Shown piece by piece: positions 34,901-60,438 of a DNA stretch of 64,000 nt; positions within the stretch are counted from its first letter, which is position 1, and each line of letters starts with the position of its first letter. Source of the DNA: Cirrosporium novae-zelandiae (taxonomy: Eukaryota); contig JAPETS010000014.1 in NCBI GenBank assembly GCA_026023565.1, positions 1 to 64,000 on the forward strand, read 5' to 3'. The notes under the pieces were generated by a model, which was given only the letters and a program-made list of their open reading frames with translations, was not told where the DNA came from and did not search any database. The position numbers and the translations under genes were made by a program.

Positions 34901-37900
34901 TTAACCCCATGTTCCGCCACCACCACCCCTTCCTTGTCTTTTCTGTGCCGACAATCTCCAATCATCCTCTCCAGCAAACCGGTTATGCAAAGGCTGTATC
35001 CTCTCGGCTTTCTTCCTCTTGCTCAGCTTGTCTGTTGGTGCGACCTTGAAAAATGTTGGCGCTGCTGCAACAAGCCATTTCGGCTCTATGGCTGTCGTGC
35101 AATGCATATACTCTTTCGTTGTCATCACCAAGGTATGGAATATAACATGTTCGGCTGGCTTGCCAAAAAGAGCTGAACTAGGGTGCAGGTACACGGGTGT
35201 TCCTTCAGTCAAGGTCTTATAACCCTCTTGTGGGTCTTTCCGAGCAGAGTTCCGGAAGAAGCCTGAGCAAAGTGCTTGTCGGACTTTGGTAGTGTTGCGA
35301 CCACAGGAAACAATGGAATGTTTATAGCGTTCCATGATTCCTAGCAATTGCGTCCGTACGTCTTGTGCACGTTTCATCTGCCGAGCTTGGATGAAGTTTT
35401 CATAGCACCACGGATTTGAGAAATGAGACTTCTTCCATCCATTATAGACATTAAGGAGGGTTAGATGATCTCCCGTGGGGTCATGGAATTTGGATTTCTT
35501 TTGATCTGCTTGCTGCTGTTTATCCTTGGGGCGGTAGAAGACAGTTTGGACAGACAACATTGCAACAATACTAAGCATTTCATCAGAGCAAGTCATGTCT
35601 ACTGATGCAATGAGGACCTTTGATAGTGCAGGCTCCATAGGAAAATCAGCCATTTTACGACCCAGACGGGTCAGGAGACCTTCATCATCAAGCGCGGAAA
35701 GAGCGTAAAGCTCTTCGAGGGCTGTAAGCATAGTGTTTGTCGGTGGCGGATCCATAAAGTCGAAATGAAGAAGATCATTGATTCCCATGGCTTTGAGCAT
35801 AAGAATTGTGTGAGAAAGGTTTTGTCGCTGAATCTCGGGAATGGTTGTGGGCAGCATCTCGGATTGATAGGCAGCTTCGGTGTACAAACGGAAACATTTT
35901 CCTGGCCCTGTTCTCCCTGCTCTGCCCGCCCTTTGCTTGGCTTGGGCCTGACTGATTGGGGTTACCTAGAAAAGTGGGTTAGTTTGATATTCAAAATGCG
36001 TTGACTTTGAGAAAGAGAATACTTACAACTAGAGAGTCCATTCCAAGCTTTGGGTCGTAGGCATTTTGTTTAACAAAGCCAGGGTCGATTACGTAGTAGA
36101 TTCCGTCGATTGTGATGGAGGTTTCAGCAATATTTGTAGCTAGAACAACCTTTCTGCTTCCTGGAGGTGTGGGTTCGAAGATACGACTCTGCATTTCACT
36201 GGGAAGGGCAGAGTAGACAGGTAAAATGATCAGTTCTGGAACATTAGGCCCAAGCCCCTTCATCCTCTCGTACAAAATCTCACAAGCGTTTTCGATTTCT
36301 TCTTGACCAGTCAAGAAAAGTAGAATATCACCCGGTGGCTCAGTGAGATGGATCTGCATAACTGTGATAAGTGCAGCGTCCATGTAGTCGGATTCCGGTT
36401 CCCTGGAGTACATAACTTCGACAGGAAATGTTCGTCCGGGGATTGTGAAGATAGGACATTTGTTGAAATACTCAGAAAACTTCTCAGCATCCAAAGTGGC
36501 TGAAGTCACAATCACCTTTAAGTCGGGTCTTCTTATTACAGTCTTCTTTAGCAAGCCGAAGAGAATGTCTGTTGAAATTGTTCTCTCGTGCGCCTCGTCC
36601 AACATAATGACGCTATATCGGCGTAGATCAGGATCGATCAGTACTTCACGTTGAAGCATTCCGTCTGTCATATACTTGATTTTTGTCTGGGGACTCGTGC
36701 AGTCTTCAAAACGGATAGTATATCCGACCTCTTGACCTAGCTGGCATCCCACTTCCTCTGCCACTCGTTTAGCCACGCTCATAGCTGCCACACGCCTAGG
36801 CTGAGTACATCCGATAATTCCTGCATTCCCATATCCACTTTCGGCCAAATACTGCGTCACTTGGGTTGTTTTACCACTTCCCGTCTCCCCAATCAAGACG
36901 AGGAGTTGATGTTCAGCTACAGCTTCCATGAGAGCCTTTCGAAACTTGAAAATTGGTAAACCTTCCCTTTGATCCTTAATCGACAAGGACGTCCGCTTGC
37001 CGAAGGATTGATTCTTATTTTGGACGACTCGTTTCCATTCAGGAACTTGATCGGTACTATTCATCTTAGCCGTTCGTAGATCAGAGGCAAACTTCCTTTC
37101 GGGAGCTAAAGGATCCTGCCATTGAGCAGTAAGGTCAACCTGAGCAGCCTCCTCGGCGGCTTTGTCTTGCGCCTCTTGCTGCTTTCGGTCACGGCGCTCC
37201 TTAGCAATCTGTGTTCCTGACATCGCAGCTCTGTTAAGAGATCCATCTGGTGCTTTAACAACACGAATGGGTGACAATTCGAGAGATTGTTTTGTTTGGC
37301 CAGCCAAGAATGGAGGTTCATCTTCTCGTACTTCAATATCAATATCTTCTTCTTGTTCGAATTCTCCCTCTCCATTGAGTGTCGCATTGTATTCTTCATC
37401 GACATCAGGATAATCCGCAGCAGATATTACACCAGAAGCTATAAGTTGCCTAATCTCCCATCTTTCAGGTGACGTCATGCGTTTCCTGGTACCTCGCCTC
37501 CCATTCATATCTCCTTCGATGACCGGAATATGGGAGCTGAGATTACCATAACGTTCATGTCCATTTCTTAGGCTATCCTGGTTCTCAATATTCGCCCCTG
37601 ATGCTATTCGTCTTGAAGGGACCAGGTCTCGACCGGTGATTTGATCAACTTCTTTCATAGAAAGGCCGATACGGCTGCCCTTAATAGTAGCAACCTTGAC
37701 TTTCACAGGTTGCCCTATGGAGACAAGATCGGAAGGATGATTCACTCTAGCCCCCTCCTGCATAGCAGAAACATGCACGAGACCATCAACTTTACCCTTG
37801 ACACCTCGTAGATTGACAAAGGCACCAAAATCTTTGATGCCGGTAACAACACCGTCGTAGATCTTGTAGATAACCGGCTGATCGTCCAAGACTTCCCTTG

Positions 37901-38513
37901 GCCCTCTCCTCTCATCATAGAGACTTTCAGAAGATCGCCGCCTCTTACGACCACTAGAATGTCGCGGCTCCGGACTTCGACCTCTTTTATGGCCATTCGA
38001 ATAATTTCTTGGTTCCGGACTCCGGCTCCTTTTGCGTGTAGTCTCCTTGTGCTTTCCAGCCAGTCCTTCAAGCATAGCAAATGTATCATCCAGCTCACCC
38101 AAACCTGCACTATTCTTGTTTATTTCTGCTTCATCTCCATCGTCCCATTTTGGCGCTTTGTCAGGCAAAGCTAGCCCCTTGAATATCCTCGTCTTCCTCT
38201 CAACATCATCGATCTGCTCCTCGTGGTTTGCCTTGCCATTTTCATTTTCGCGACTGTTGGCTTGTGATTTGCGTTTAGGGTGCATAGCAAGGACTAAGCG
38301 GTCGATGCTTTCGACGAGGGTTTGAGGGAAATCGGCGCCCGTCGCATCGAGCGCTTTTTTGAAATCGCCAAAGGACTCGCATTTTGAATGCTGGTCGATG
38401 ACGAACTCGGCGACGGTTTTATCGTTGATGCCTAGATGGTTGGATATTTCAGAGGTCACCTTGGAGACTAGGGAGAGGAATTCGAGCTTCTCGAATTCGT
38501 CAAATTCGTCCAT
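34901..38513 (-). CDS. PRP22: Pre-mRNA splicing factor DEAH-box RNA helicase Prp22 (DHX8)
   Basis: Exons 38513-36027 and 35965-34901, with a 61-nt intron GTAAGT..CTAAC..TAG. Contains an S1 domain (GIKDFGAFV), [27 protein letters not shown] and QRAGRAGR. Confidence 0.97.
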
Positions 38514-39158
38514 GATGCTTCGTTTGTAGATGACACCTCCGGGGAGGTTTCTAGTATGGAAATCGTCGGAGGCGACTGTACTCAATACGAAGGTTGGAAA
38601 ATAAAGTTGCGGGAACACTAAGCCCAATACGACTAGTGCCAGAGAGTATCCTTGACGCCTAAGGCATCAACGACTCAACTTCACTCGAGATTCTATCAGC
38701 CGAACTCGTTTGCCCAACTAAAGAATTTTCTCCTCCGCATCTATACAACTCTACAATCCTGATGACCACTGACAACCAACCTTGAAATTTTCAGGTGTAT
38801 AGACAAGTCGGCGATATAAACTATAAAATGAATTATCATCATCAACAGGTCGGCAAGAAAGCTATCCTATATATTTAGATTTTGAAATAAAATTTCTATA
38901 TTGTAGGTGCAGCTGTGAAATTTTAGTAGCAATTGAGGTGCATGTTCTTTTTCCTTGACCTGCGCTCTATCTACTTCTATTTAATATTCTATCGCGTAAC
39001 AAGTTGACAGCTCTTGTTACCATTAATACTGCCTTATATGTTGATAAATGCATCAAGCAGCATGATCTTCAGCTTCCATCCTTCCCACAACACTAATCAG
39101 ACCTATTACTAAGGTATAAAACTCTCAATACCACTACCTAAGCTGTCACTTTTACAGC

Positions 39159-42066: not shown

Positions 42067-43697
42067 TTACACGCTCTTCTCCTGCGCCTGCTGCTCCTCC
42101 TTTACCGGGGGCGTCATCGATCCAGACCCCTCACCAGAAAGGCTCTGAGGAATCCCCCTCGTCGGCTGCACACTCAAACTCATAGACCAATCCCCAATCT
42201 GCTCATCAAAGAACTCATCCAAATCCAACCCCTGAATCTCCGCCTCCTCACTCGCTCTCAAATGCATACCCGGAATATACTTCAAGATCAACAACAGCAA
42301 GCACGACACCGTGAATGAATACGCAGAGATGGATGTGATTTCTGCAAACTGCCGGCCGACCTGGATGCCGACGCCGTCGATAGCGCCCGAGGCGATGGTG
42401 GCCCCGTCGAGCGCGGATACGTATTTTGTGGCGAAGATGCCGGTGAGGAAGGCGCCGACCATGCCGCCGATGCCGTGGAGTTTGAAGACTTCGAGTCCTT
42501 CGTCAATGTGGAGCCAGTCGTTGAGGTCTTGGAGGGAGGCGCAGACGACGGAGGTGAGGAAGCCGATCACGGCCGCGATCCAGACCGTTACGTAGCCGGC
42601 GGCTGGGGTGATGCCGACCAGGCCTGCGATGGCGCCTTCGCAGGCGCCGACGACGGAGAATTTGCCGTTGTGGCGGATCATGTCGACCATTACCCAGCCG
42701 ATTACGCCGAAGGAGGCGGCGGTGTTGGTGTTGAAGGCGGCCATCATGGCGCGAATTGTTGCGTTGAGGGCTGAACCTCCCTGTTTGGTGGAGTTAGTGG
42801 CGAGGCCTGAATTGTGGGAGTCCTGTGGACCGAGGCTCTTGCTTACATTGAATCCGAACCATCCGAACCAGATAAGTACAGTACCCAAGAAAACTAGGGT
42901 TGTATTGTGTTTCATACCATGGTGCTTATGCTCATGGCCGTGATGCGTTCTCTTCCCCAAAACTAAAGCATAGGCCAAAGCAGCCCAGCCACTTGCAATG
43001 TGTACAGGCCCTCCCCCAGCAAAATCCAGAGAAGGGAGATTGTAGAGCCATCCATTGGAATTCCAGGTCCAACAAGCGATCGGACAATACACAATAGTGG
43101 CCCACCAGAACCCGAAGATGAGTGATGGGATGATTCTTCCTCGTTCAAAGGAGCCTCCAACAACGATTTGTACGGTGCAGGCGCAAAATAGCAACTGATA
43201 AAGGCAGAAGACAATATCTGGGATATATGCAGAACCTGTGCTCGGGGCTGCAGAAACGCCCCTCAGGACGAAGTTGGCCATATCACCGATGAACGGGCCC
43301 GCCGTGCGGGAGTATGCAAGGGAAAAGCCCCAGAACATCCATTGGAATGTGGTTCTTATGTTTGTGTCAAAATCTAGACGGGTTGTATAGGAAGGCTAAT
43401 GAACTTACACTGCACCGACGAGCAGGGACTGGAAGAGAAGTGCAAGTGCACTCTTCCTCCTTGCCATTCCTCCATAAAGAAGGCCGATACCGGGAATAAT
43501 CAACCACACGATGAAACCCAAAATGACAATGTAAACGTAGTGGAATTCATTTCCAGCATATTGGGCATTGATATCAACCTCCAGCGGATTGCCGCCGTTT
43601 GGCTCTGAGGCGTTATAGACAGGCTACTTCTCAGTTAGCAAAGGCGTACAATCAAAATAAAAAGAACGTCGGCCTCGAAACTTACAGCACTGCTCAT
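42067..43697 (-). CDS. Ammonium transporter (Amt/MEP family)
   Basis: Exons 43697-43686, 43623-43409, 43354-42847 and 42780-42067. Motifs FQWMFWGFSL, ERGR, LDFAGGGPVHIASG, WFGWFGFN|GGS, GAIAGLVGITPAAG and HGIGG. Confidence 0.95.
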
Positions 43698-44429: not shown

Positions 44430-46956
44430 TTACAGCCGCGACTGTGTTTGCAGCGCTTTTCGCCTTCTCTTTTGCGGCGGTGATGGTACAGGTTTCTCCT
44501 CTATTGGAGAAGTAGCTGCCTCAGCAAAAAGATGCCGGCCAACTCGGTCTGCAAGTCTCAGTACACGCGAACTTACCGTGGCACCATCTCGACGGTTTTT
44601 GCTGGCCAAACTTAGCGAGAAAAATATAATCAATATAGAAAATAACTTACCCTTCTCTTCTGGATTGAGCAATTCGTTCGGTGAAATCCCACAGCTTGCC
44701 CTCTGCGATTATCCTCCCGTCTTCTCCCCTCTTTGGAATCCACTCCGAAGCCAGTTTGATGGTGGTTGGGGCTTTGATGGTCTTCGCCTGGGCCACAATT
44801 ACCATACTCTCTTCGATGAATCTATATTAAATATTGTTAGCCCCTCTTAACATGCGAAAAAAGGCTATGGTGTTAATCAGAACTTACCGTTGGTATGCAT
44901 TCTTGAGAGTTTCAGAATTAACTGCTTCAAAATAGGATACATCTCCTTGATGATACAATGTCTTCCCTAGAAGCTGAGAGGTAGCCTGTACAGTCTTGTT
45001 ATCAAGCCATTTTTCCGCATCTTCAGGTGTTGGAGGAGTAAGAGTGAAGAGGGATACTGTTCCAAGCCAAGACGCTTCAATAAATGGCCAGACCAGGAAG
45101 CAGTAAAAATCGTAGTTCTCTCTGCCTCTGGCACGCTCTTCATCACTGAGGTCTACTGATCCGATAGCGCCATTATGATCATAATTCAACTTCACCACTT
45201 TATCTCTTTCAAGGCCCTTGAGTGTATTCTCAAGATTAGCAGCCAATCCAGCTGATGGGAATATGAACTCGTTGCGTAATAGCTGTGAGAGGAAATAGCT
45301 TTGATCATAAAGTGCCTCATAAGACATTTCCTGATTAGGTCCACCCTGCTTAACCTTTGTGTAGAGAGCAGTCGAGACAACAGCTTCGGAGACAAACAAG
45401 TGGATGCATGCATTGCGGTAGAAGCTGAGCTGGAAGCGGTCCACAGCGTAAAACGTTTCTTCGGCCAGATCTGGAATTCTACCGACCAAACTGGGTCCAA
45501 GTACTTCGATGGCCCTGGTCACCACAGCATCGGTTGGTAGACCTCCAAAATGTGCGACTCGACCACCTTTGGACTTGATACGTTCACTCAACCAATCGAC
45601 CCTCCGATCAAGTTCGCTTCTCCCGACACCACGTCCACGTAATGTAAGCAGCACAGTACCAACGAGTGCGGTGGGCATGACTACGGCTACTGAATTTATA
45701 TCAGCTAGCACTCTGTACCCAAGGGTTGTGAGAAGACGAGTTCCGCTAGGGTCTGCACGAGACTTGGTTGCTTTCTGCGGATTATTGCTCATGCGTTGTT
45801 GCTCGCGATCAATGAAAGATTTTAGACTCCACGGCTCATGGAAACGGACATCCACACGACCTAATTTGAGAGACAAGACCGAAGAGGCAGAAAGAAAATC
45901 TCGAAGGTTCTCTTTCTGTTTCGGTTGGCCAAGGAGCTCATTAACATAGCCATCTACCTCAATAACTTTGTCGTATTGGGTTGAAACAGGACAAAAGTAG
46001 ACATCGTTAACACGGCCAGACAGTACGCTGTCAAGAATAAATCCAATAATCCCAAACTTCGGTCCCAATAACTTTCCTGTCCTTGATCGACCCCCTTCAA
46101 TGAAGCATTCTATATTATAGCCATTTTGTAGTATGGTATCAACGTAGCTTTGCACCAACGTATGGTACAGAGCATCGTTCCCAAAACTTCGCCTTATCCA
46201 CATGGCCCCAGCGTGCTGCAGAAACGGACCGACGAGAGGAAATCGTAAATTATCACCAGCGACCACGACGGGCAACCCAATCCCAAGCCGGTACATGATA
46301 ATCTGGAGACTAACATAGTCCACATGTGATCTATGTGATGGTAAAAAAACAATGGAAGTTTTTGTCTTTGCAGCTTGTTCAGCAACTGCTCTCAAACGAA
46401 GAATTTCCTCGCTGTTGACATGGATGCCTTGATGATAAGCCCGACAAAGCAACTGCGTGCACATATAAAAGGCTGATCTGATAAATGCCTTGCTTTCCAT
46501 TTTACAAATCATGTCATCTGTCATTTTCTCAACGAGCTCTTGTAAACTCTGTTCTATTTCTCTCTTTCTTTTATCCCTCTTTTTCTCAAAGCCACTATTT
46601 TTGGGACCTAGCATACCAGAATTCCCCTCTGTTTCAACTCTTCGTTCAGCCAAATATTGGATCTTTTCTTTGAGCATTGGAGTTGCCATAACCATGTTCT
46701 TCATTCTTTCCGAGTATCCAGCGTAAAAGATTGGTTGCCCCACGACATTCTCATAAGCTCGCCATCCGGTTCCTGAAACATAAAGACTGACGTCACGGAG
46801 GAATTCAAAGGGCGATTGACGAAATCGAGCGCCGTCGACCAGACTCCGCTCGGAGGAGTCATCGTGGGGCTTTTCCGTGAATCCTGGAGGATGGATAGTA
46901 ACTTGTGATCCAAAGATTTCAAGGTCCGGTGCGGTGGGAGTATCAGTGGATGGCAT
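44430..46956 (-). CDS. Glycerol-3-phosphate/dihydroxyacetone-phosphate acyltransferase (GNPAT/PlsB-like) with PTS1
   Basis: Exons 46956-44888, 44821-44651 and 44601-44430. Motifs FLPSHRSHVDY (HxxxxD), GAMWIRR and FIEGGRSRTGK. The spliced C-terminus ends QSRL*. Confidence 0.9.
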
Positions 46957-47619
46957 GGTGAACTTGATGCCTGCAGATAAATAAGTCTACCAGCACCCAG
47001 ATGAAGCACTCGGTTAAAATGAGATATTTTGTGGCTATCGTACTCCCATATTGAACCAGTATATAGAAATGAGTAAGGATATTATCTCCCTTGCTGGGTA
47101 TTAGATTTGATTGGACTTTAGGAGTTGCTAGCTGCCATCAACAAAGCCGACGGCTTTACCCCACACTTCACTAATGCTTTAGCCCCTTGGCCCGAACTCT
47201 TGAGGCTTCGATTAAATGCTTCCCAGCCCAACAGTGCCAATTTCACTCTTGCCAATGGCTACAGCATTAATACTCGAAGTACAGACTCTTACTAGGAAAA
47301 TTAATTGTATTAGTCTAGTGACTAGTTGATAATATCTAGTTGCGTGACAGCACAAGGTGCTAGTTTTATGTATCTTTAAGATGTTGTATGGAAGCTTCAT
47401 CCAAACACCCTCGCTATTCAGGTACAAGAATAAAATATATAAAAAGAATATTATAGAAAATCGATAGGAAATGCCAAAGCTTTCGAGTGATATCGATATA
47501 GTCCCTTACCAACCCTGTATCAATCTATGAAATGTCTGGGCCATATCCAATCATTTCCAGAGAACAATCGTTGTGAGGTAATGTCATAAAAAGATCGGCT
47601 CCTTCCCACCTGTCTAACA

Positions 47620-50600
47620 TTAAAAATGGGTTTGTTGCAGGGTCCACCCTGGGTTATTCTCTTGGAAATTAAACGGCCGTTTTTGCATATCTCGCCCACC
47701 AGTCATTGAATTTGGTGGGTATGCCCAAGCCTGGTCTGCCCTCTCATGGCCGCTGGGAGGAGCATATCTTTTGGGATCCCTATCAGTTTCTGCAAATTGG
47801 CCAGCTGATGACCTACCAGACCTTTTTTCAGGGACGGTGGCAGGCGCTTCCGTGATAGGCCACTTTTTACTATTCAAGGTGGGAACATCCTTCTCATCAA
47901 TTTCCACTAGCTCACCATTTACTCCAGATATAAAATGTTTCGCTGGCAGGACGCGGAGATCTACAACTGGCAGAACTCGGCGGTAAATATCCTGGGTATT
48001 GGTTTCGTGAGAAGTCCTTCTTTCCTGAGTATGGTGGATTTCTTTTTGAATCGTGACGCGTATAACAGCTACGAAATTATCAGTAGAGCTCTAGAGTCAA
48101 AGCATGTAATACCATACCGGGAGGGTCCATTTCTGTATCGATAATATCATTCAAGTCAATTACGTGCCTTAAAGCGGGCTTTGTCCTTTCTGAGAATCTC
48201 GCAGATTCGAGCTCGCGTTCACGTTGACGACGTAATCCATCGGAATTGTCCTTAGAAACATGTCCATTGGCTTCTGCTCTCGGTTCTTGCTTTCGTGTTG
48301 GACGAGATACCGCATTCCCTGAAATCGAAAATATTAGGTCGTCCAGAAGATCGGGTTTAGTGGTAGGCCCACCAGTAGAATTTTCGGGTGATGTCCATGT
48401 ATCCGAGAGGTACGGAGATACGTCCCGCTTCCAATCATTGGACAAATCAGTAGCAGTGGAAGTAGGCGTGTCACGATCCTCGTCATAGTTGGAACTAACC
48501 ATGCTCGCACGAATATATTGGCGACCTCTGGAATTGTGATCAGCGACCATCTCTTCATACGTCCGGCCCCCTCCGTTTCTGGTATTACGATCTGCTGGAG
48601 TCTCCTCGTGTGTGTCCGATGTCCCAGTATAGAGGTCTGATAAGTCCGTCGTCTTTATTGGTGGTAGGGTTTGGTATCCTTCAGTTGGTTTTTTTACGGC
48701 GACGCCTACATTTAATTGGTCGTCGCCAGGCAAATATGAAAACCTCAGATTATTCTCCGAAGCAGAGCCGATGCTCCTTACAGAGTCAGCAGCAACCATA
48801 AGATCAACATGATTAGAATTTTGGTTGCTTGCGGATGAGGGAATACTACCCTCGCTGTCGAAAGGCGGTTCAACGAGGCTATCGTGAAGGTCCTTGTGAT
48901 GCTTAAGCGGGATTGGTGGGACAGGTGGAATAGAACCACTCCCGCTAGAAACACTCCCAAGAGTAGATTCGGGCCTAGAAATGGTATTTTGCTGACCCCT
49001 CGGACTTGAACTTGGCTGCATGGGCCTCGAGATACTCTCAGAGTTTCGCCTCTTTCTATTAGCTGCACCGTCAGATGAATAACCCACTTTGGAGAGTAGA
49101 CTATGACGATTTGGAGCAGAACTGTGTGATGGTCCTGGTTGTGTTTGCACAGCCATTTGAGTAGTTTCGGGATCCGGTGAAACCCCAAGTCCTCCAGATA
49201 CCACATTTTCCGCAGCTGTGGAAGGCTCAGACCGTATATTGGGTTGAGAGACCTGCGATCGTGCTGGGGAAGGCGGAATTTCAGACCTATTCTTCTTTCT
49301 ATTAGCTGCACCTTCGGATGAATATCCCAGCTTCATTAATAGACTTTCCCGGTTCCGTGAGGAGGTGGTGGAATATGGTCTTGAATATACTGAAGCATCG
49401 TCGGTTGGTGTAATAGGAACGCTATCGGAGAGTTTAGAAGACCTCAAAGATGGATTTGGTGGTTCCAACAGTGAATTTCCAGTAGAGGGAAGATTAGACA
49501 TCGATGCTTGTTTCCGGTTTGCCGCACCCTGAGCCGAATATCCCAATTTTTGTAAAACACTTTCTCGATTGCGGGCAGAAGTTGAACTAAGTCTTCCCGA
49601 GCGTTCCGGGGCGTTATCAACTGGTGAGACGGGGACACTTTTAGAAGCATTGGAGGATTTGAAGGGAGGGTTTGGTGGCTTCAAAGGGGATAATGGCGGT
49701 TGAGATGAAGTTGAAAGGTTGGTCATTGAGTGCCTTTTCCGATTCGCTGCCCCCTCCGATGAGTATCCTAGTTTCTGCAGAAGACTTTCGCGGCCTCGGG
49801 CTGAGCTCTGGTTGGATTTTCTCCCTTGACTAGAAGCAATATCAACTGGCGATACCCGTGAATTTTCAGATATTGTAGGGGGTATGGACGTAGGGATTTG
49901 TTGATCTGGCGGTAATTGTACAGAAGGCGGACTAGTCGCCGATATCGACTTTCTATTTGCTGCACCAGCAGAGGAGTATCCCAATTTCATCATCAAACTA
50001 TCGCGATTGCTTTTCTGGGGCTTCCCCATCGGTACTGACAGAGAATCTGTTGGTGACACCGGAGTGTACTCGGAATATTCTGGAGGATTTGGCGGAATTT
50101 CCAGCCGCGGGGGCTGAGGTTGAGAAAACATGACCGGCAACTTCCCTTTGCGATCAACTGGTCTCTCGAATAAATTTCCTGGCTTTACCATCGGCCTGTC
50201 ATAGGTTTCGTGGGCGCTCAGGTGGGATCTTCCTGTTTGAAAGGACGTCGCGCCGCTTGTTGAAGGTTCATCATCATACACACCCTGTGTCTCATCCTCC
50301 GGGCTATCTTCAATAGTAGTAATATTATAAGAAACTGGTCCAGGCTCTAAAGGGGAGTGTGGTTGGCCGGGGGGTGGGTATCTCATTGGAAGGCTGTTCT
50401 GAGAGGAATGCTTCTTCCTGTTAGCAGCGCCTTCAGAAGAATATCCCAATTTTGACAATAGGCTTTGCCGGTTTGAAGATGGACTTGGGGGGAAATGTAC
50501 TCGTCGTTCCGATACAGGAGTCCTGGAGTCGGTGGAGGAGAGGATACTCGGAGGGGTTTCCGTATTCAGAGATAGGGATCGCTTTTGATCTGATTGTGAA

Positions 50601-50746
50601 TCTGTTCCCGAGGAACGACTATTAGATATTGGTAATGAGATATGCTGCAAGTCTGTAGGAGAACCGATTGTCTTTCTCGATCGTTTACGATTAGCGGCAT
50701 TCTCGGAGGAGTAGCCCAGATTCTGGAGAACATTGTGGATCCCCAT
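47620..50746 (-). CDS. Large Ser/Pro-rich hypothetical protein (~1020 aa) with seven internal ~20-aa repeats and a small C-terminal domain
   Basis: Exon 1 is 50746-48118, then an intron GTATGG..CTGAT..TAG, then exon 2 at 48068-47620, which joins in frame (PAVIRVTIQKEIHH..DIYRRVLPVVDLRVLPAKHF..ELVEI). Repeat consensus RxSLLxKLGYSSEGAANRK. Confidence 0.85.
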
Positions 50747-51321
50747 TAGGATATATAAAAGGATGTCAAAGAAAACAGTAGGGAATATTCAGAAGAAAAA
50801 ATAAAGATAAGTTTCGACCGAAAATGAAAGACAAAAAGTTGTCACGGGCTTTCAGAAAGGGTTTAGAGATGAATGTCCAGAAGCCGAATGGCAAGTCAAT
50901 ATGACATAAGGCATGATCTAGAGCAATAGAGAATTGTACAACGAAGAGGAAGACTGGTGTGGGGGGGGGGGGGGGGGGGGGGGATGGAAGATGGACAGGA
51001 GAAGATGGTACTAGACCTTCTAGTTGGATCTTCAGCTCTTGGAGGAGGGAGGTGGTTTCAGGCCCCAGGATTAGTGAATCTCTCTTTTTTTCTAGATTTG
51101 GATACATTTTCTAGCAACAATAGCACAAATTAAAAAAGAGGTTAATAATAGCTCTTGCGTTAGACACATAGCCACGGGTACAGTAAAGTAGAAAATACAG
51201 AGAATAGGATTGGATGGGGCTGAGAAGAAGCTTGAGCGAACGATTTGATAGGAAGGATTTGGAGGGGATCACTGGGGGGATCATTGGGGGGAACAATTGG
51301 GACGACTGGGATGGCTGGTAT

Positions 51322-51366
51322 GACTTGGGGGACTTGGGGGACTTGGGGGACTTGGGGGACTTGGGG
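51322..51366. repeat. (GACTTGGGG)5 minisatellite, G-quadruplex-prone
   Basis: Read directly from the sequence; lies upstream of the repeat-protein gene. Confidence 0.9.
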
Positions 51367-53919
51367 GGGGATTTCATGTGGGATTGATGACCGACAGACG
51401 AGTTAAATGAAGGCAAACGAGCCAAACCGAAGACCGAAGTCACCGAAAATGAAGTTTAAATATGGAATATAGCCAGTAGCCGCAATCCCCGTTCACCTTA
51501 ATTCATTCATTTCCAAGCAATTCATCCCATTTCTTGCATCTTTCGCATGGTCTTTTTCTTTGTTGCACCTGGGTACCCGCGTGGTACCCAGCTAGCTGGC
51601 CATTATAGGTTCAAATCACTTTGGGACCAACAACAACTTTCATCGAGAAACGAACCAAGACCGAAATTATTAAATCTTCCAACAACTTCTTAACTCCTTA
51701 ACTTCTTATCTTCTCAATCCTTTTCCATCTCCATCCTTTCCGATTCATCCATCGGCCCTAGATCCCTATTCTAACTTACGTCTTTCGTTTTTTGTGCTTC
51801 GTCGTCGCTATTTATCGCCTTATCTACCGAGGTGTATCCTCTTGGCCTCTTGAATACTTTCCGTTCCACGTTCGGGATGACGCAATGGGAACTCCAGACC
51901 TCGCTGATTATTGACACATTTCCAGTCTTAGCCATCTTAGAAGGATAAATTTGTCAGATATACTCAGCCGTTGAGAATGCCTACTGAGTTTAACATGAGT
52001 ACCAATGCCTATATTCATGAAAGACTTGGATGAATAATGACTTGACGTCGCGAAGCATCTCTGGATACCTTAAACCCCCACTGATGAACTCATATCACTT
52101 GATCCTCTCTGTCTAATAGCATTGCACTGCAGTAAGATGTAGTCAGGGGTGCATGTTTTCGGGGTTTTTTTTCATTAATGCGAGATCCGACAGGAGAAAT
52201 CTGCTGACCCTTTGCTAACGCAATACAGCAAAAGCAGCAATTCAGGACACTGCGAGATATAACAGTCATCATGATACTACCATTTATGGACGTGAGCGAT
52301 GCGCCGACTCCGATCATGAACCAATATCAAAATCTATTTTTAATGAACTGGGAGAAAGAAATAGCATGAATAAGTCAGATTACCAGAGCCGAAATCCACT
52401 TCTTAATCATCTCTTCCTTTTATCGAGAACACAACCAAGCTTCCTATATGTTTTTAATAGAGATGGATTACGAATGCTAGAAATTAATCCAATACCCAAG
52501 AGTGCTAATACCAATACCACTACTAAGACGCATAAACTCCCCCCACAGCTCTTAGCAGCATTGTTTCCTCCGACCTCCGGTGGTACCAGCTGGAACGCCA
52601 CTCGTTTCCTCACAAACTCGTCTGTCATACATAGCCAGCTCCATTCTAAGTCTTCATCCTCCCCACGACGCCCAGCGGACCATAATCGCTCAAGTGATTC
52701 AAATACCAAGAATAACCCGGATTTACGTCGCAGATTACATTTTCTGTCCTAATACTGATGCTGACGGGAATTGGAGATTTATGGATTAGATGATCTTGTT
52801 GGATACCATAAATACTAGGTTGGGTTCGATTTCTAAGAACGAGCGCCAGTGATTGGTCACACTGGTATCATCAGTGTTCTTTTAATCTGACTGTCGTTAT
52901 AAAAAGCTTTTGTGAGCTGGTGTTTTTTTTTTCATTATTCCAGATACTTATTTGTAATTCCATACATACATATATATATACTAATTATAAGATGAAATAG
53001 AAATGAAATCTACGATTTGACATGACTCGAGCAGCGGCCACATACCACAATACCGTACCGATAATAAACAATTTTTCATGATAATTCACGGTTTTATGGC
53101 CACATGCCGCTTAAAAACAATTTTTCATAAATGAATCCGAAAACTACATTTCGTTTCCTTTTACTACTACACTACAGTCCTAATAATCACTCCAAAATCC
53201 CAACTACTGTTTCCCTTCCTTCATCAGCTTGTTGCTACTGCTACTGCTACTATTCACGGCCCACGACCCACGACCCACAACTCCTTCCACCCCATCTCTC
53301 CATTCATCCATGGCCCATAATCATCAATAACTACCACAGCTGCCCCTCAAACACCCATGAAACACGAATTGGTTCACAAAAATCCGCCTTCAGCTGAGAA
53401 GAGCGAACAATACAGCTAAAGAGTAAATCGTAATCCGTTTCAGAAGGAACCTCCTGCTACTAGCTTTTTTAAGTATCCGACTGAATGAGGTTCCTTCCAT
53501 CTCAACCAACTTTCTCTTCTCCCGTTCTTTGATTTTGGCATATTGCGTGTATGTGGAGATGGGAAAATTGTTGCGCCAGCTTCTTTGAAGGTGCCAGTGG
53601 GTACGTAGATGTTATGGAGATATGTTGTGGCACCCTCGCCCCCTCCCGCCGCCCCCACCATTATTAGGTTAGATGGTTGTACAAGCTGCGCGTAACCGGT
53701 TGCCTAGTCGGATAGATGGATAGTGGGTATGTATCGTGTTGCACGGGCTGCTTATTCGTAACGTAAACGTGCCACGTCAAAACCCGACCGGGTACGAGCA
53801 TGTTAAGAGTAACAAAAAGTGACTCTTTGACGGCTCCTTAGCTCCTAGTTCCAACATCTCGTCACTGACAGAATACGATATCCTGGGAACCGGAGTTATC
53901 AATCAAAGTCTCGAGAGTC

Positions 53920-56352
53920 TCAAGACTCAAACCCGATAGGACCTTCTCCGACCATTTCACCCGAGAAATCCAACTTCATTAGTAATCTATCGATGCCGGC
54001 GCCCTTCCAGGGCACATACTGGTCCTCTTTCCCCGCGCCATCGAACCCCCGATCCTTCCCCAATCTATTCTCGTCGATTTCTCTTAGTCGATGTACGAGT
54101 TCTTTGATGCCCGAGTCGATTTCCTTGCCCGCTTCCACGAGTTCACTTTTGATCGTTTTTTCTTCTTTTTTGTAGTCGACAGAATCGAAGACACCGTCAT
54201 CTTCTTCGAGGTCGAGTCCCTGCTGTACAGATTGTAGACGTGTAAATAAGGCAATTAGGTGGTCGACGTGAGCTATGAATTTTCGGAGGATGAATGTCCA
54301 GGAGACGTCATCCATGAGGAGGTATTGGTAGAGAACTTGAAGGTAGAGGCGATGGGCGTCGGTTAAGGCCTCTGGGTCACGGTTGGATGCGAAGGGAGAG
54401 GCGAACTCGCTCTGAGCGAGATCGTTTCCGAATATGCTGTTGGAAATTGCAGGGGCTTCGCTTCGCGCTGTTGCGGGACGGGATGGCCCGTCACTGCGAG
54501 AAGTTGTGGGACGGGACGATGTTGTTGGTTGGGAGGGATTGGTTGATGACGGTAATGACGACGGGCCTAGGATCCACGCTCGGAAGTGTTTCCAGGAGCC
54601 TTCGAGTACTTCCCCTTGGAAGTAGCCTCCTAGCTCCGCCAGAAGAAATACAGCTGCACCAACCGTTGCCCATATGGGCCGCATGAAGAGTGTTCGGGCA
54701 TTTGCTCTTGCTCGTCGGGTTCGTAGTGCGTTTTGACCCCAGGTGGTGCTGCTGCGCGGAGGGCCCATTGGAGAAGGATATTCTCTTCTTAATGCAGTGT
54801 GCCTCCAGAGATCTGCGAGACGGATATGGGCTCTTCGGAGACCTAAGATGTAGGCATTAATTACTGAATACATCTCGAGGTCCGACTTTGCTAGGAAAAG
54901 ATCCAACGGTTGTGGTACTTTCATCCATAATGTTGTTGGTGTGGACAAGAGAAGGTCTCGGAAGCTGGTGGCAACTTTTTTTGATGCGGGATGTGTAAAA
55001 TCATGATCTGGAACCGAGGGCGCACTGGCTTTAGAAATAGATAAACTGATCAGTTCTCGAGCCATATCTAGTTCGTCATCGTTTGAATCATCCTGCATCT
55101 GCACAGAAGCAAGTTCAGTCCAAGTTCTCGCAAGGACATTAGTGACCTCGCCTTCTTTCACCATTAATCCTTCCAGAGCATGCTTCTTACTTAGTCGACC
55201 TAGCCCAGCGGTTGTTCTCCGATGCCGAGAATTAAGAGCAGCATCTGCTTGAGTAACTAGGGCTATAGCAAATTCTCCGCGACCAAGCAGAAAGAAATTA
55301 TGCAAAAGGCTTAAGATTTCGAGGATTCTGGATAGCGGAAGAAGCTCTTGCAAAGTATTTTGGGAAAGTGAAACTCGGATTGCTGTAACGGCTTTAGTGA
55401 AGCTGTTTGGTGATAATGGAAATGTCAAAGAAGTTAGATAAGATAAATGTATGGCAAGTAGACTTGTCTTAGGGGACCCTGGCTGCCGTGACTTCATTAC
55501 TTGTATCGAAGTACCTCGATTGCGAACAAGACGAATAGATTTTCCAATATATAAAATGGAGGACGCTGTCGATGGTGTAACAAACTTGGGTACCATCTTT
55601 TCCCTAATCACAAACTCTGATGACCTTGGAGAGTCCGTCCCCTGTTTTTCATTTGTTCCACATATGAAAAAGTCCTCCCTGCCAAAATCTGGGAGTTGGC
55701 CATAGAGTAACCAAGAAGAAAGTTGTTTCAACCAAGCTCTCTCTGCCTCCTTCGATAGTTCTTTTGCTGCTATTTCAAGAGCAGGATAGCCCGTTCTCAT
55801 CTCATCTCTCAAGTGATTGATTATAGCTGCACCGCTGCATGGATCGTCTGCCTCCGGTTCTTTTCCTTTAATCTTCGTCAACTTTTCCGGCGCCAATGGC
55901 ATCATGATTAGCGTCAGCTCCCATAACCAGCTTAACATTCGATCCCAGCCATCAAACTGGTCGACCATAGCTGACAAAGGAACAATTCCATAGCCTCCCA
56001 CCATAATTGGGCTCTTCTCAAGTATCATAGCCTCCACCTCGACAACCTTGCGCCTGTACCTTCTTAAGTGAACGGAGGCTATCGATGTTGAAACAGTACG
56101 GCATATTGTTGAGAAATGCGACGAGGAAATGATGGACGTATGAACACGAATATTCTCATGTAATTTGCCGAGTCGACCAAGTGAAGCTAGTAGAGTTTTC
56201 TCTGGCGGCGAAAGGAGGGAAGAGAGCTCCTTGAACGAGGGACTCTCATCGTCGCTCTCATCTTTAGTCTCATTTTCTAGCGAAACTCGATTGAAGAGAG
56301 GTGATGGGTGACCGGCTAAGGAGAGAAGGATTTCGTGAAGATATTTTGACAT
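53920..56352 (-). CDS. GCP4: Gamma-tubulin complex component, Spc97/Spc98 family (GCP4-like)
   Basis: LHEILLSLAGHPSPLF N-terminus, WLKQLSSWLLYG, ASSILYIGKS, FFLLGRGEFA and AHRLYL GRIP motifs, and a DRLLMKLDF end. A probable 5'-UTR intron at 56404-56353 (GTATTC..GCTAAC..TAG) abuts the ATG. Confidence 0.85.
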   Translation of the reverse strand: MSKYLHEILLSLAGHPSPLFNRVSLENETKDESDDESPSFKELSSLLSPPEKTLLASLGRLGKLHENIRVHTSIISSSHFSTICRTVSTSIASVHLRRYRRKVVEVEAMILEKSPIMVGGYGIVPLSAMVDQFDGWDRMLSWLWELTLIMMPLAPEKLTKIKGKEPEADDPCSGAAIINHLRDEMRTGYPALEIAAKELSKEAERAWLKQLSSWLLYGQLPDFGREDFFICGTNEKQGTDSPRSSEFVIREKMVPKFVTPSTASSILYIGKSIRLVRNRGTSIQVMKSRQPGSPKTSLLAIHLSYLTSLTFPLSPNSFTKAVTAIRVSLSQNTLQELLPLSRILEILSLLHNFFLLGRGEFAIALVTQADAALNSRHRRTTAGLGRLSKKHALEGLMVKEGEVTNVLARTWTELASVQMQDDSNDDELDMARELISLSISKASAPSVPDHDFTHPASKKVATSFRDLLLSTPTTLWMKVPQPLDLFLAKSDLEMYSVINAYILGLRRAHIRLADLWRHTALRREYPSPMGPPRSSTTWGQNALRTRRARANARTLFMRPIWATVGAAVFLLAELGGYFQGEVLEGSWKHFRAWILGPSSLPSSTNPSQPTTSSRPTTSRSDGPSRPATARSEAPAISNSIFGNDLAQSEFASPFASNRDPEALTDAHRLYLQVLYQYLLMDDVSWTFILRKFIAHVDHLIALFTRLQSVQQGLDLEEDDGVFDSVDYKKEEKTIKSELVEAGKEIDSGIKELVHRLREIDENRLGKDRGFDGAGKEDQYVPWKGAGIDRLLMKLDFSGEMVGEGPIGFES

Positions 56353-56726: not shown

Positions 56727-57282
56727 CCCAACTATTTTGCCCATTAGATACTATCTGGGCAGATGCCTTGGGGAAGAATTCATCATTATTATTGTTCACA
56801 TTATTGAAGTGGGTGGGTGTTGGTGATCTGGTGTTGTTTGGATTCCCCAGGCATCAACTAGGCCTTGTCCCTTGGCCCGTGCCTGCCTGGATGGTGGGGT
56901 TGCCTTCGAGCTCCTTCTCAGTGTGCTCTCAACAGTCCGTTCAGTTTAATTATTTATCAGCAAAACTTCCACTTGTCATATAAAATTCTAGATTCACTCT
57001 CATCACTGGTCCCGTGGCACATCACTATTTTCAGGCCTGTGATCGATTAAGCCTTCAAGCAAACAGCTTAGTTTCTACCGACTTTCCCCGCCTCAAACTC
57101 GATAGTTATCTCCATAAATACCTACCTCGCACCTTTCCTTTCCAAACTCCAACAACATTCATTCCCACGCCAATATTCAGGAAGCAGAAACGCACCGTCA
57201 GGAAACCTCCAACAAAGCAGCAGCCAAGCTGGGTAAAAGGAAAGCTTCCATCGTGGAGCTTGGGCAACGGCCAAAAAAAGTC

Positions 57283-60200
57283 ATGGCCGACAACAAAATG
57301 CAGGTCGACAGTGTTGCTAAAGCTGCCGAGCAGCTAGAAAAGGGCGAAATCGATGAATCCCTATATAGCAGACAGTTATATGTGCTTGGTCATGAAGCTA
57401 TGAAGCGGATGTCATCCTCTAATGTGCTTATAGTTGGCCTTAAGGGATTAGGTGTGGAAATTGCCAAAAATATCGCTTTGGCCGGTGTAAAATCTTTGAC
57501 CCTCTTCGACCCTACACCTGCAGCTATCGCGGATCTATCCTCGCAGTTCTTTCTCCGTGAAAGCGATGTTGGCAAGCCTCGGGCCGAAGTAACACAGCCT
57601 CGTGTAGCTGAGTTGAACTCCTATACACCTATCGATATTCATCCTTCCAAGAGCCTAACGACCAACCTTTCGCAACTCAAACGCTACCAAGTTGTAGTTC
57701 TAACGGCCACTCCGCTCAAAGATCAACTAGCTATTTCAGAATATTGCCACGCAAATGGAATATACCTTGTTATTGCAGATACATTTGGTCTTTTTGGGAG
57801 CATCTTTACAGACTTTGGGGAAAAGTTCGCGGTGGGTGATACAACTGGCGAGAATCCCGTTAGTGGGATTGTGGCCGACATTGACACCGATGGTACCGTA
57901 TCCGCTCTTGATGAAACCCGTCATGGCCTTGAGGATGGAGACTATGTGACGTTCACTGAAGTTGAAGGGATGGAAGGTATAAACAGCTCAGCCCCTCGCA
58001 AGGTCACCGTAAAAGGACCATATACATTCTCTGTTGGCGATGTTTCAGGACTAGGGGAATACAAGCGTGGTGGGCTCTACATTCAGGTCAAGATGCCCAA
58101 ATTCATCGACTTCCAGCCTTTTAAGGAACAGTTGAAGAAACCAGAATTATTAATTTCAGACTATGCAAAATTCGATCGTCCACAACAACTCCACGTTGGG
58201 TTCCAAGCACTCCACAAATTTGCGGAGCATCATGAAGGGCAGTTCCCACGGCCATTCAACAATGAAGATGCATATGAGGTTTTGAAATATGCACAGGAGT
58301 TGTCAGAAGTCGGCGGCGAGAAGGTTGAGTTGGATGAGAAGTTACTTCGAGAGCTTAGTTATCAAGCTAGGGGAGATCTCAGTCCCATGGCAGCTTTCTT
58401 CGGCGGGCTGGCTGCTCAGGAAGTCCTCAAGTCTGTTTCCGGAAAATTCAACCCCATTATACAGTTCATGTACTTCGATTCTCTTGAATCGCTTCCTACT
58501 TCAGTACAGCGATCGGAGGAGCTATGTAAGCCCATGAATAGCCGGTACGATGGACAAATTGCAGTTTTTGGTCGAGAATATCAAGAGAAGATTGCTAATC
58601 TCAAAGAATTCCTTGTGGGTGCCGGTGCTATTGGGTGCGAAATGCTCAAGAACTGGGCGATGATTGGCCTTGGTACAGGTCCTAAGGGGCACATCACAGT
58701 AACCGATATGGATTCGATCGAGAGGAGCAATTTAAATCGTCAATTCCTCTTCAGACCGAAGGATGTTGGCTCTATGAAGAGTGACTGTGCTGCAGAAGCT
58801 GTTATTGTCATGAATCCAGCATTAAAAGGCAAAATCACAACGTACAAAGAACGAGTCGGTCCTGACGCGGAAAGGATTTTTAATGAGGATTTCTGGGAAT
58901 CTTTGGATGGTGTCACTAACGCTCTTGACAACGTTGATGCAAGAACATACATTGACCGAAGATGTGTTTTCTTCAACAAGCCATTACTGGAAAGTGGAAC
59001 TCTTGGTACTAAAGGCAATACACAGGTTATATTACCTCGGTTGACTGAATCATATTCGAGCTCTCAAGACCCTCCTGAGCAGTCTTTCCCCATGTGCACT
59101 TTGAGGAGCTTCCCTAACCGAATCGAACATACTATTGCTTGGGCCAGAGATTTATTCCAGGCATACTTTGTCGGGCCACCCGAGACTGTGAATCTCTTCC
59201 TTACTCAGCCTGATTATATTGACAAAACTCTAAAGAAAGCTGGAAACGAAAAGCAAACCTTGGAGCAGTTGCGTGACTTCCTAGTGACAGACAAGCCACT
59301 CAGCTTCGACGATTGTGTTATTTGGGCCAGGCAGCGGTTTGAAAAGCAATATAACAATGACATTCAACAGTTATTGTATAACTTCCCCAAAGATTCCAAG
59401 ACCTCTACTGGTACACCATTCTGGTCGGGCCCTAAACGTGCACCATCTCCTTTGAAGTTTGACCCTGAAAATCCTACCCACATAGGTTTCGTCATTTCTG
59501 CTGCGAACCTCCATGCGTTCAATTATGGTATCAAAAACCCGGGATATTCCAAAGAGCAGTATGAGAAGGTCATGAACGACATGATTATACCGGAATTCTC
59601 CCCGGATTCTTCTGTCAAGATCCAGGCAGACGATAGTGAACCAGATCCAAATGCTCAGCAAGCGTCATCATCATTTGACGATGGCGCCGAACTCTCGAAG
59701 ATGATCACCTCTCTTCCATCGCCAAAAGGCCTTGCTGGTTTCCGCTTAGAACCTGTAGAGTTTGAGAAGGATGATGACACCAACCACCACATCGATTTCA
59801 TTACCGCTGCCAGCAATCTGAGGGCTGAGAACTACAACATTCAGACAGCAGACAGGCACAAGACCAAGTTTATTGCTGGAAAGATTATCCCAGCTATTGC
59901 CACCACGACGGCTCTCGTAACAGGGCTAGTAATCTTGGAATTATACAAGGTTATTGATGGAAAGACGGATATTGAACAATACAAGAACGGATTCGTCAAT
60001 TTGGCTTTACCATTCTTTGGATTTAGTGAACCGATCGCTAGCCCGAAAGGTAAATATATGGGCAGGAATGGAGAGGTAACAATTGATAAGTTGTGGGACC
60101 GCTTTGAAATTGATGATATGACTTTGACGGATTTCCTCAAGTGGTTTGATGATAAGGGGCTCAGCATCACAATGATCAGCTCGGGGGTAAGCTTGTTGTA

Positions 60201-60438
60201 TGCAAGTTTCTATGCTCGAAGCAAGCTTGCGGACAGAATGCCTCTAAAGTAAGTCTTACACTAAGTTGGTTTTAGATCAAGTTGCTAACTAATAAATAGG
60301 ATGAGTGAGTTGGTGGAGAAAATAAGCCGTAAACGTATTCCAAAACACCAGAAAAACATTATCTATGAGGTGACGGCAGAGGATCAGACTGAAGAAGATG
60401 TTGAGATTCCTTTTGTCACAGTCAGAGTGAGGAAATAG
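57283..60438 (+). CDS. UBA1: Ubiquitin-activating enzyme E1
   Basis: Exons 57283-60248 and 60300-60438, with intron GTAAGT..CTAAC..TAG. Motifs [32 protein letters not shown], catalytic PMCTL and [12 protein letters not shown], plus the UFD domain. Confidence 0.98.

Follow-up and report, generated by a model that had tools for sequence, protein, structure and literature searches.

A single gene of the fungus Cirrosporium novae-zelandiae encodes all seven copies of a 19-residue motif that has no relative in the sequence collections searched. The gene lies on the minus strand, has one intron, and specifies a protein of 1025 amino acids in which the copies are followed by two motifs and a C-terminal domain shared with an ascomycete family. 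The window analyzed is a 64,000-nt stretch of contig JAPETS010000014.1, and the features discussed below are collected in Table 1. We put at roughly even odds (a probability of about 0.5) that the product is a stress- or dormancy-linked disordered protein bearing a lineage-specific, multivalent array of putative docking motifs that engage a specific protein ligand. A multivalent motif array had already been proposed in a sequence-only reading of this DNA and still describes the protein best, although that reading missed the conserved domain, the family, the two family motifs, and the dehydrin-like partner gene.

Table 1. Positions in the 64,000-nt window of the features of the repeat gene and of the region upstream of it
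Feature	Residues	Position	Strand	Remark
Exon 1	1-876 plus one base	48118..50746	-	record P0001
Intron, 49 nt, GT..AG		48069..48117	-	phase-1; within Ala codon of PAV motif
Exon 2, including stop codon		47620..48068	-	
Motif copy 1	3-21	50684..50740	-	at N-terminus, without R-x-S head
Motif copy 2	93-111	50414..50470	-	
Motif copy 3	248-266	49949..50005	-	
Motif copy 4	319-337	49736..49792	-	
Motif copy 5	394-412	49511..49567	-	
Motif copy 6	466-484	49295..49351	-	
Motif copy 7	547-565	49052..49108	-	
DLQHISL	28-38	50633..50665	-	resembles family DLQHL (25/120 homologues); by eye and regex
Family motif 1, HEETPADRN	713-721	48584..48610	-	
Family motif 2, YEEMVADHN	730-738	48533..48559	-	
Conserved C-terminal family domain	858-1012 (~155 aa)	47662..48175	-	spans intron; long branch
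Candidate diverged partner, 177-codon open frame		52219-52752	+	head-to-head with repeat gene
TGACGT (CRE-like)		52043..52048	+	lone site between the two genes; not evidence of function

The gene and its seven motif copies

The open frame begins with an ATG at 50746, and the protein extends well past the interval 49040..50746 in which the repeats had been noted. In length and at both ends the gene model agrees with database record P0001, a hypothetical protein of C. novae-zelandiae. The start codon is not certain, as an upstream CTAAT..CAG at ~50750-50723 could serve as a splice acceptor. An upstream open frame on the same strand (50766-51110, ATG near 51107) is a possible uORF or alternative first exon, and its poly-Pro run is encoded by a long homopolymer of G/C around 50961-50983. 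Run X1 has one contig that covers the whole gene with zero differences, although this DNA may itself come from X1, which is thus not independent. Runs X2 and X3 gave no sequence covering the gene, which does not establish that it is missing from them. In assembly G000 the locus is present twice, on C35 and C47, with 0 mismatches in 4/4 8-kb stretches from 1 to 72000 (L059-L063). The C47/C35 pair (535 and 684 kb) is probably an assembly duplicate, which probably explains the two accessions of P0001. Neighboring genes are ordinary, with a glycerol-3-phosphate acyltransferase at 44884-46986 (-) and a gamma-tubulin complex component at 53920-56352 (-) recognized by Pfam, and a ubiquitin-activating E1 at 57118-60252 (+), a Prp22-like helicase at 34901-38666 (-), and an ammonium transporter at 42067-43395 (-) recognized by eye.

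All seven peptides quoted in the sequence-only reading were recovered in one minus-strand frame. As 19-mers they average 75% pairwise identity (80% for copies 2-7) and share eight invariant columns, G, Y, S, A, A, N, R, and K, with conservation stopping after 19-20 residues. The best seed matched its six partners at 15.7/19 positions; in 60 shuffles the mean was 6.7 and the highest value 7.3. For the 15 pairs among copies 2-7 taken together, pS is 0.78 and pN is 0.13. Silent sites are therefore saturated between copies while the peptide is maintained, which shows that the duplications are old and that the motif is held by purifying selection, as had been suspected from codons that differ where the peptide is kept.

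The segments between the copies had been called variable, and they do differ, but they are not unrelated, as several are homologous. Spacers 4 and 5 align with a z of 13.4 and 25/53 identical residues (pS 0.88, pN 0.34), whereas the corresponding motif pair from the same duplication has a pN of only 0.07. Spacer pairs 2/3, 2/4, 2/5, and 3/4 each exceed 300/300 shuffles. Units 3-5 measure 71-75 residues each and have homologous spacers, and these alignments indicate that copies 3-5 derive from tandem duplication of a unit of ~72 residues. Serine makes up 19.8% of residues 1-600. AlphaFold modeled the full-length protein with a pLDDT of 45 and 841/1025 residues below 50; the alignment is thin over the repeats. 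Residues 1-860 are disordered in this model, in keeping with the earlier description of the protein, and none of the seven repeats is given a helix, again with the thin alignment there.

Host family and head-to-head partner

The family of the C-terminal domain was reached only through a degenerate DNA pattern built from exon 2, as a protein search with exon 2 returned self alone among 115 candidates. The pattern retrieved 47 metagenome stretches, all of which (47/47) encode the same domain, and one such locus recovers 261 proteins at E<=1e-5. Among the 120 of these 261 that were listed are Dothideomycetes, Lecanoromycetes, and Sarea, and all the names shown are those of hypothetical or uncharacterized proteins; examples are P0044 (Cryomyces), P0049 (Friedmanniomyces), P0015 (Aureobasidium), P0100 (Sarea), and P0076 (Trapelia). 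Searching back into G000 with homologue L039 gave this gene as the sole match (E 1.4e-19), and profile A2, which includes the query row, scores it at 108 bits. The domain is 30-41% identical to its relatives over 88 residues, and the intron acceptor AG falls at the same Ala codon in many homologue loci and is absent in others. Pfam assigned no family to ten homologues. On these sequence comparisons, the gene is the only detected member in this fungus of an unnamed Pezizomycotina family.

Within that family the query is divergent. In a tree of 42 of 114 aligned rows, named genera group by lineage, and the query branch measures 3.13 (median 0.41), which leaves its placement uncertain. Cirrosporium and Xylobotryum form an isolated class (PMC6712537), which in part accounts for the absence of close relatives. 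The domain retains its conserved Pro, Gly, Trp, and hydrophobic residues, but His880, Glu881, Glu893, His900, His906, Glu915, and His993 mark positions where conserved residues have been replaced, and His is as scarce in the strand region of only 1/113 homologues. The N-terminal region is ~879 residues long, compared with a median of 312 and a maximum of 585 in 79 homologues. AlphaFold gave 88 residues of the domain a pLDDT of 59, and PDB and fold searches with the domain were empty, which says little for models of such low confidence.

In relatives the family gene has a regular neighbor. Of the 27 loci whose upstream sequence reaches at least 3 kb, 26 have an opposite-strand paralogue 2.0-3.3 kb upstream of the domain; these paired loci (among L009-L053) amount to 17 distinct partner sequences, with many near-duplicates. 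The His/Glu-rich domain of the partner is distantly paralogous to that of the family (E 1e-6 to 3e-4 with the family profile), and the partner family has no Pfam match. Partners are 48-57% identical over 100 residues across clades, carry a DPR domain in 17/47 loci, and, in the five frames shown, end in an LM[DE]-type K/R-L-N tail. In the window, the position of the partner is taken by a 177-codon open frame. Its first ~43 codons (52222-52350) align without gaps to the start of the partner, with 0, 0, and 2 of 2000 shuffles reaching the scores, and no likeness is seen beyond them. Such a frame stays open over 177 codons in 1 of 20000 shuffles. The pattern HHDTT[VI], chosen after the match was seen, occurs in 31.4 Mb only here and on the duplicate contig (reversed control, 1). 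Neither protein search nor nhmmer recovered a partner here, and the frame is either a gene that has diverged quickly or one in decay. A possible branch point and acceptor lie at ~52215-52229 and the start codon is ambiguous; between the two genes, at 51318-51370, is a short tandem repeat of about five copies of a 9-nt unit.

The intergenic DNA of the relatives is enriched in CRE-like sites. In the 1.5 kb preceding the partner domain, TGACGT reaches 2.6x its density in the remaining sequence of the loci (23 sites in 18 kb against 44 in the other 88 kb, binomial P 4e-4), a count made on 12 chosen loci of the 26 that sets mostly intergenic DNA against mixed DNA. Expression of the fungal dehydrin-like proteins DprA and DprC is AtfA-dependent and enriched in conidia (PMC4869263). 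In 6/47 loci an omega-GST-like neighbor is found no more than 5 kb from the family gene, and at 61423-62226 (+) of the window an open reading frame resembles, by eye, an omega-class glutathione transferase. Elsewhere in its own genome C. novae-zelandiae has one exact match to the canonical DPR signature, the other 4 matches being at control level (3). This sole match (L064, G000:C60:85134-88154) has several further GRDA/AG-rich, His-containing repeats and no Pfam assignment at cut-off.

Relatives and origin of the motif

The motif had been called unrecognized, and the searches bear this out. Neither the whole protein nor any single copy matched Pfam, with 0 families for 7/7 copies at E up to 10. 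The suggested likeness to the first helix of a G-patch fails on the same search, and no GxGLG follows any copy. Residues 1-600 compared with 5.8 billion proteins found self alone among 8000 scored candidates, and the profile search that the sequence-only reading had recommended found no true relative in 1.84 billion representative proteins. Its 7 matches were self and six others, discarded because their scores add up partial words in repeat proteins of no relation: one SMC protein that has a repeat of its own, one DUF5648 protein, two CRISPR-like translations, and two unrelated repeat proteins. The database "proteins" P0005 and P0006 resemble translated CRISPR arrays and are false matches to short repeat profiles. 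In metagenomes, 65 pattern matches yielded 0 confirmed repeats; the repeat matched 0/47 homologue loci at E<1, and no paralogue of it was found elsewhere in the genome. The best ESM Atlas scores, 0.86 and 0.87 to unnamed ascomycete clusters, are leads only. No publication was found for the peptide strings or the concept in a search that subscription journals mostly fall outside, and orthologues may hide under gene numbers in supplements.

Two structural likenesses were also set aside. The KLGYSS word is shared with the UBA-like helix-LG[FY]-helix turn of the Regnase-1 N-terminal domain (PDB 2N5J), the only PDB match of the repeat, but the E of 0.0045 sums two stretches, of 8 and 13 bits, that are out of order. 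At 19 residues the repeat has no third helix, and a three-helix UBA bundle of ~40 residues is not seen, as conservation covers only 19-20 residues, no Pfam match exists, and no helices are modeled. A WH2 reading was dropped for want of an LKK-type segment after the helix. By these comparisons the query is not a member of the G-patch, UBA, or DPR groups.

A source within the family itself fits part of the motif. The commonest words in the homologue arms are KPLP, SEDVAD[RW]N, KLFH, and DLQHL. Two SEDVADRN-type motifs of the query are the top-ranking of 850 windows and lie 149 and 166 residues before the domain, inside the family's 5th-95th percentile range of 148-216. The repeat cores rank next after them in the arm and are correctly registered; with profiles whose columns were permuted, the observed rank counts were reached in 0.8-5.8% of 1000 trials. 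Conversely, when homologues are scanned with the repeat core, the family motif comes top, in register, in 20/61 of them (P 0.016). When eight motifs were compared, the pairing of SEGAANR with SEDVADR was best (P 0.008, ~0.06 corrected), ahead of the partner's tail (0.046), RxSLxK (0.06), DLQHL (0.066), the N-terminal helix (0.18), and the first half of the DPR segment (0.21). With a homologue-only profile the repeats score below zero, and 14 to 396 of 500 shuffles reach their scores. The family motif is itself patchy, being missing in 68/120 homologues by strict regex (many of these sequences are partial) and absent in 10/10 rows of the Lecanoromycete plus Sarea clade. Its pattern has only 3 unrelated one-mismatch matches in the C. 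novae-zelandiae genome. Taken together, the tail of the repeat likely descends from SEDVADRN. For the head, the N-terminal LxKLFH helix gives P 0.001-0.53 (top rank, 6 windows) and 0.18 profile-to-profile, and RxSLxKPLP gives P 0.05-0.16; the RxSLxKPLP/KPLP motif is absent from P0001 and present in 56/84 homologues. The repeats have not taken the place of the two canonical family motifs, which the query retains. In the homologue P0096 a different motif, DPRVDGD, is present three times, which, beside the present array, implies at least two motif amplifications in the family; P0123 has one DPRVD.

Possible functions and significance

A role in stress or dormancy is suggested by the C-terminal domain, the family, the canonical motifs, and the head-to-head dehydrin-like partner taken together. 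The protein shares with the Pezizomycotina family its domain, intron position, and two SEDVADRN-type motifs, with a candidate partner frame in the head-to-head position; it differs in its seven added motifs, longer arm, lack of KPLP, long branch, and loss of conserved His and Glu. The family protein consists of a disordered N-terminal arm with short conserved motifs followed by a His/Glu-rich strand domain, its gene being normally paired, as in the relatives, with the paralogous dehydrin-like gene, and the pair is probably induced together in stress or spore maturation via CRE/Atf1 sites. In the Cirrosporium lineage ~570 N-terminal residues have been gained, at least partly by old tandem duplication, with one 19-residue motif per unit kept by purifying selection. 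Each motif would most likely become ordered on binding, forming a short LLxKL helix, then a Gly-Tyr turn and an SExAANR segment, and dock on one specific protein surface, perhaps the surface that binds SEDVADRN. Seven copies could then provide avidity or cross-linking, and binding could be switched by phosphorylation of the R-x-S serine or of flanking basic-x-S sites. The protein may have moved away from the ancestral role, as the partner is nearly unrecognizable and His880, Glu881, His900, His906, and His993 are lost.

By analogy, the closest parallels to its way of working would be fungal dehydrin-like proteins and multi-copy helical docking arrays. Paxillin LD motifs are multi-copy LLxxL-type helices in a Pro/Ser-rich disordered arm, and the likeness of the query to them lies in the several copies of such a helix in such an arm. 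The query differs in having Arg for the first Leu, a basic rather than acidic character, and an invariant GYSSxxAANRK tail, and no homology is claimed. Fungal dehydrin-like proteins can be annotated automatically as "allergen". Their signature is DPR (PMC3103405, PMC3788798). A. fumigatus DprA, DprB, and DprC and A. brassicicola AbDhn1-3 resemble the query in being disordered and hydrophilic, with negative GRAVY, little Cys or Trp, and several segments of ~20 residues separated by variable spacers. DprA and DprB have 5 and 9 conserved 23-residue stretches with poor homology between (PMC3103405). A further link is that the usual neighbor paralogue has a DPR domain and that DPRVD occurs in 2/120 homologues.

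These likenesses make it conceivable, if rather doubtful, that the protein is a generic dehydrin/LEA-type protectant, with motifs that, like plant K-segments or DPR domains, fold on anionic membranes or partly unfolded proteins and have no single partner; the repeat expansion may then replace a decayed DPR partner. The common layout, a GRAVY of -0.94, the absence of Cys from the whole protein, the confinement of its 5 Trp to positions after residue 600, the net charge of +3 to +5 on each motif plus its tail, the resemblance of the head to the partner's tail motif (that P of 0.046 being uncorrected), and the one DPR match in the genome all fit a protectant. The query, however, has 0 DPR tripeptides, is basic and Ser/Pro-rich with a conserved C-terminal domain, and contains 5.8% Gly compared with 10-22% in AbDhn1-3 (PMC3788798), and its likeness to the first half of the DPR segment is not significant. 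The head 11-mer of copies 2-7 has a hydrophobic moment of 0.06-0.12, below the arm median of 0.24, and the invariant small and polar residues better suit a specific surface; the eight invariant columns appear to exceed what a generic amphipathic helix needs. It is this combination of invariant residues and low head moment in copies 2-7 that favors a specific ligand over generic membrane protection.

An unlikely alternative is a condensate or septal-pore protein similar to SPA/SPP, whose motifs would be self-associating stickers and whose C-terminal strands would polymerize into a plug or granule. The Pezizomycotina distribution, the S/P/R-rich disorder, and the modeled domain, with extended stretches at pLDDT 60-78 that lack an internal sheet and can mean pairing between chains, agree with it. 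Known pore proteins are mostly disordered and Arg/His-biased, but they are also biased against Lys (PMC10023807), of which each motif has two or more, one of them in the head of copies 2-7. The likeness is compositional only, and the gene context indicates stress genes. Just as improbable is a stress-independent signaling scaffold, with kinase-regulated docking units as in the sequence-only reading and with putative PP1 and calcineurin sites. R-x-S heads stand in 6/7 copies and [RK][RK]-x-S follows in 4/7 (both read from the sequence), but against the high Ser content given above; residues 1-600 contain 16 S/T-P sites. The RVxF-like (aa 81-85), PxIxIT-like (aa 213), and LxVP (aa 236) strings are, however, single regex matches in low-complexity sequence, and conserved pairing with a dehydrin-like paralogue is left unexplained. 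We give very little weight to the idea that the gene was mis-called or that the array is a non-functional product of recent slippage or gene conversion. The lack of any relative of the repeat and the possible acceptor near the start would suit it, but saturated silent sites with amino acids kept are the opposite of recent conversion, the exon is open over 876 codons and joined to a conserved domain, and the X1 contig, with the reservation given above, spans the gene unchanged.

The preferred reading of a stress-linked docking array can be extended, speculatively, to an undescribed ancient head-to-head stress module of filamentous ascomycetes. The His/Glu strand domains of the two paralogues would co-assemble, possibly in a metal- or pH-sensitive manner, and display docking motifs. 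In C. novae-zelandiae the partner would have decayed, the domain lost its His and Glu, and the survivor rebuilt its function by fusing and amplifying family motifs into the seven-copy segment, amounting to the birth of a new dehydrin-type repeat in one lineage. We regard this joint scenario as improbable in its entirety, though not far-fetched.

Repeated conserved segments within a disordered protein are a familiar layout; for the motif, the host family, and the gene pair, no description was found. The head-to-head partner family merits study on its own. The pair is seen in loci resembling Dothideomycetes and lichen fungi, many of which are stress-tolerant, and is amenable to knockout in laboratory molds. 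The repeat is known from one genome only, and the array would offer a dated, single-lineage case of a linear motif amplified and fixed by selection.
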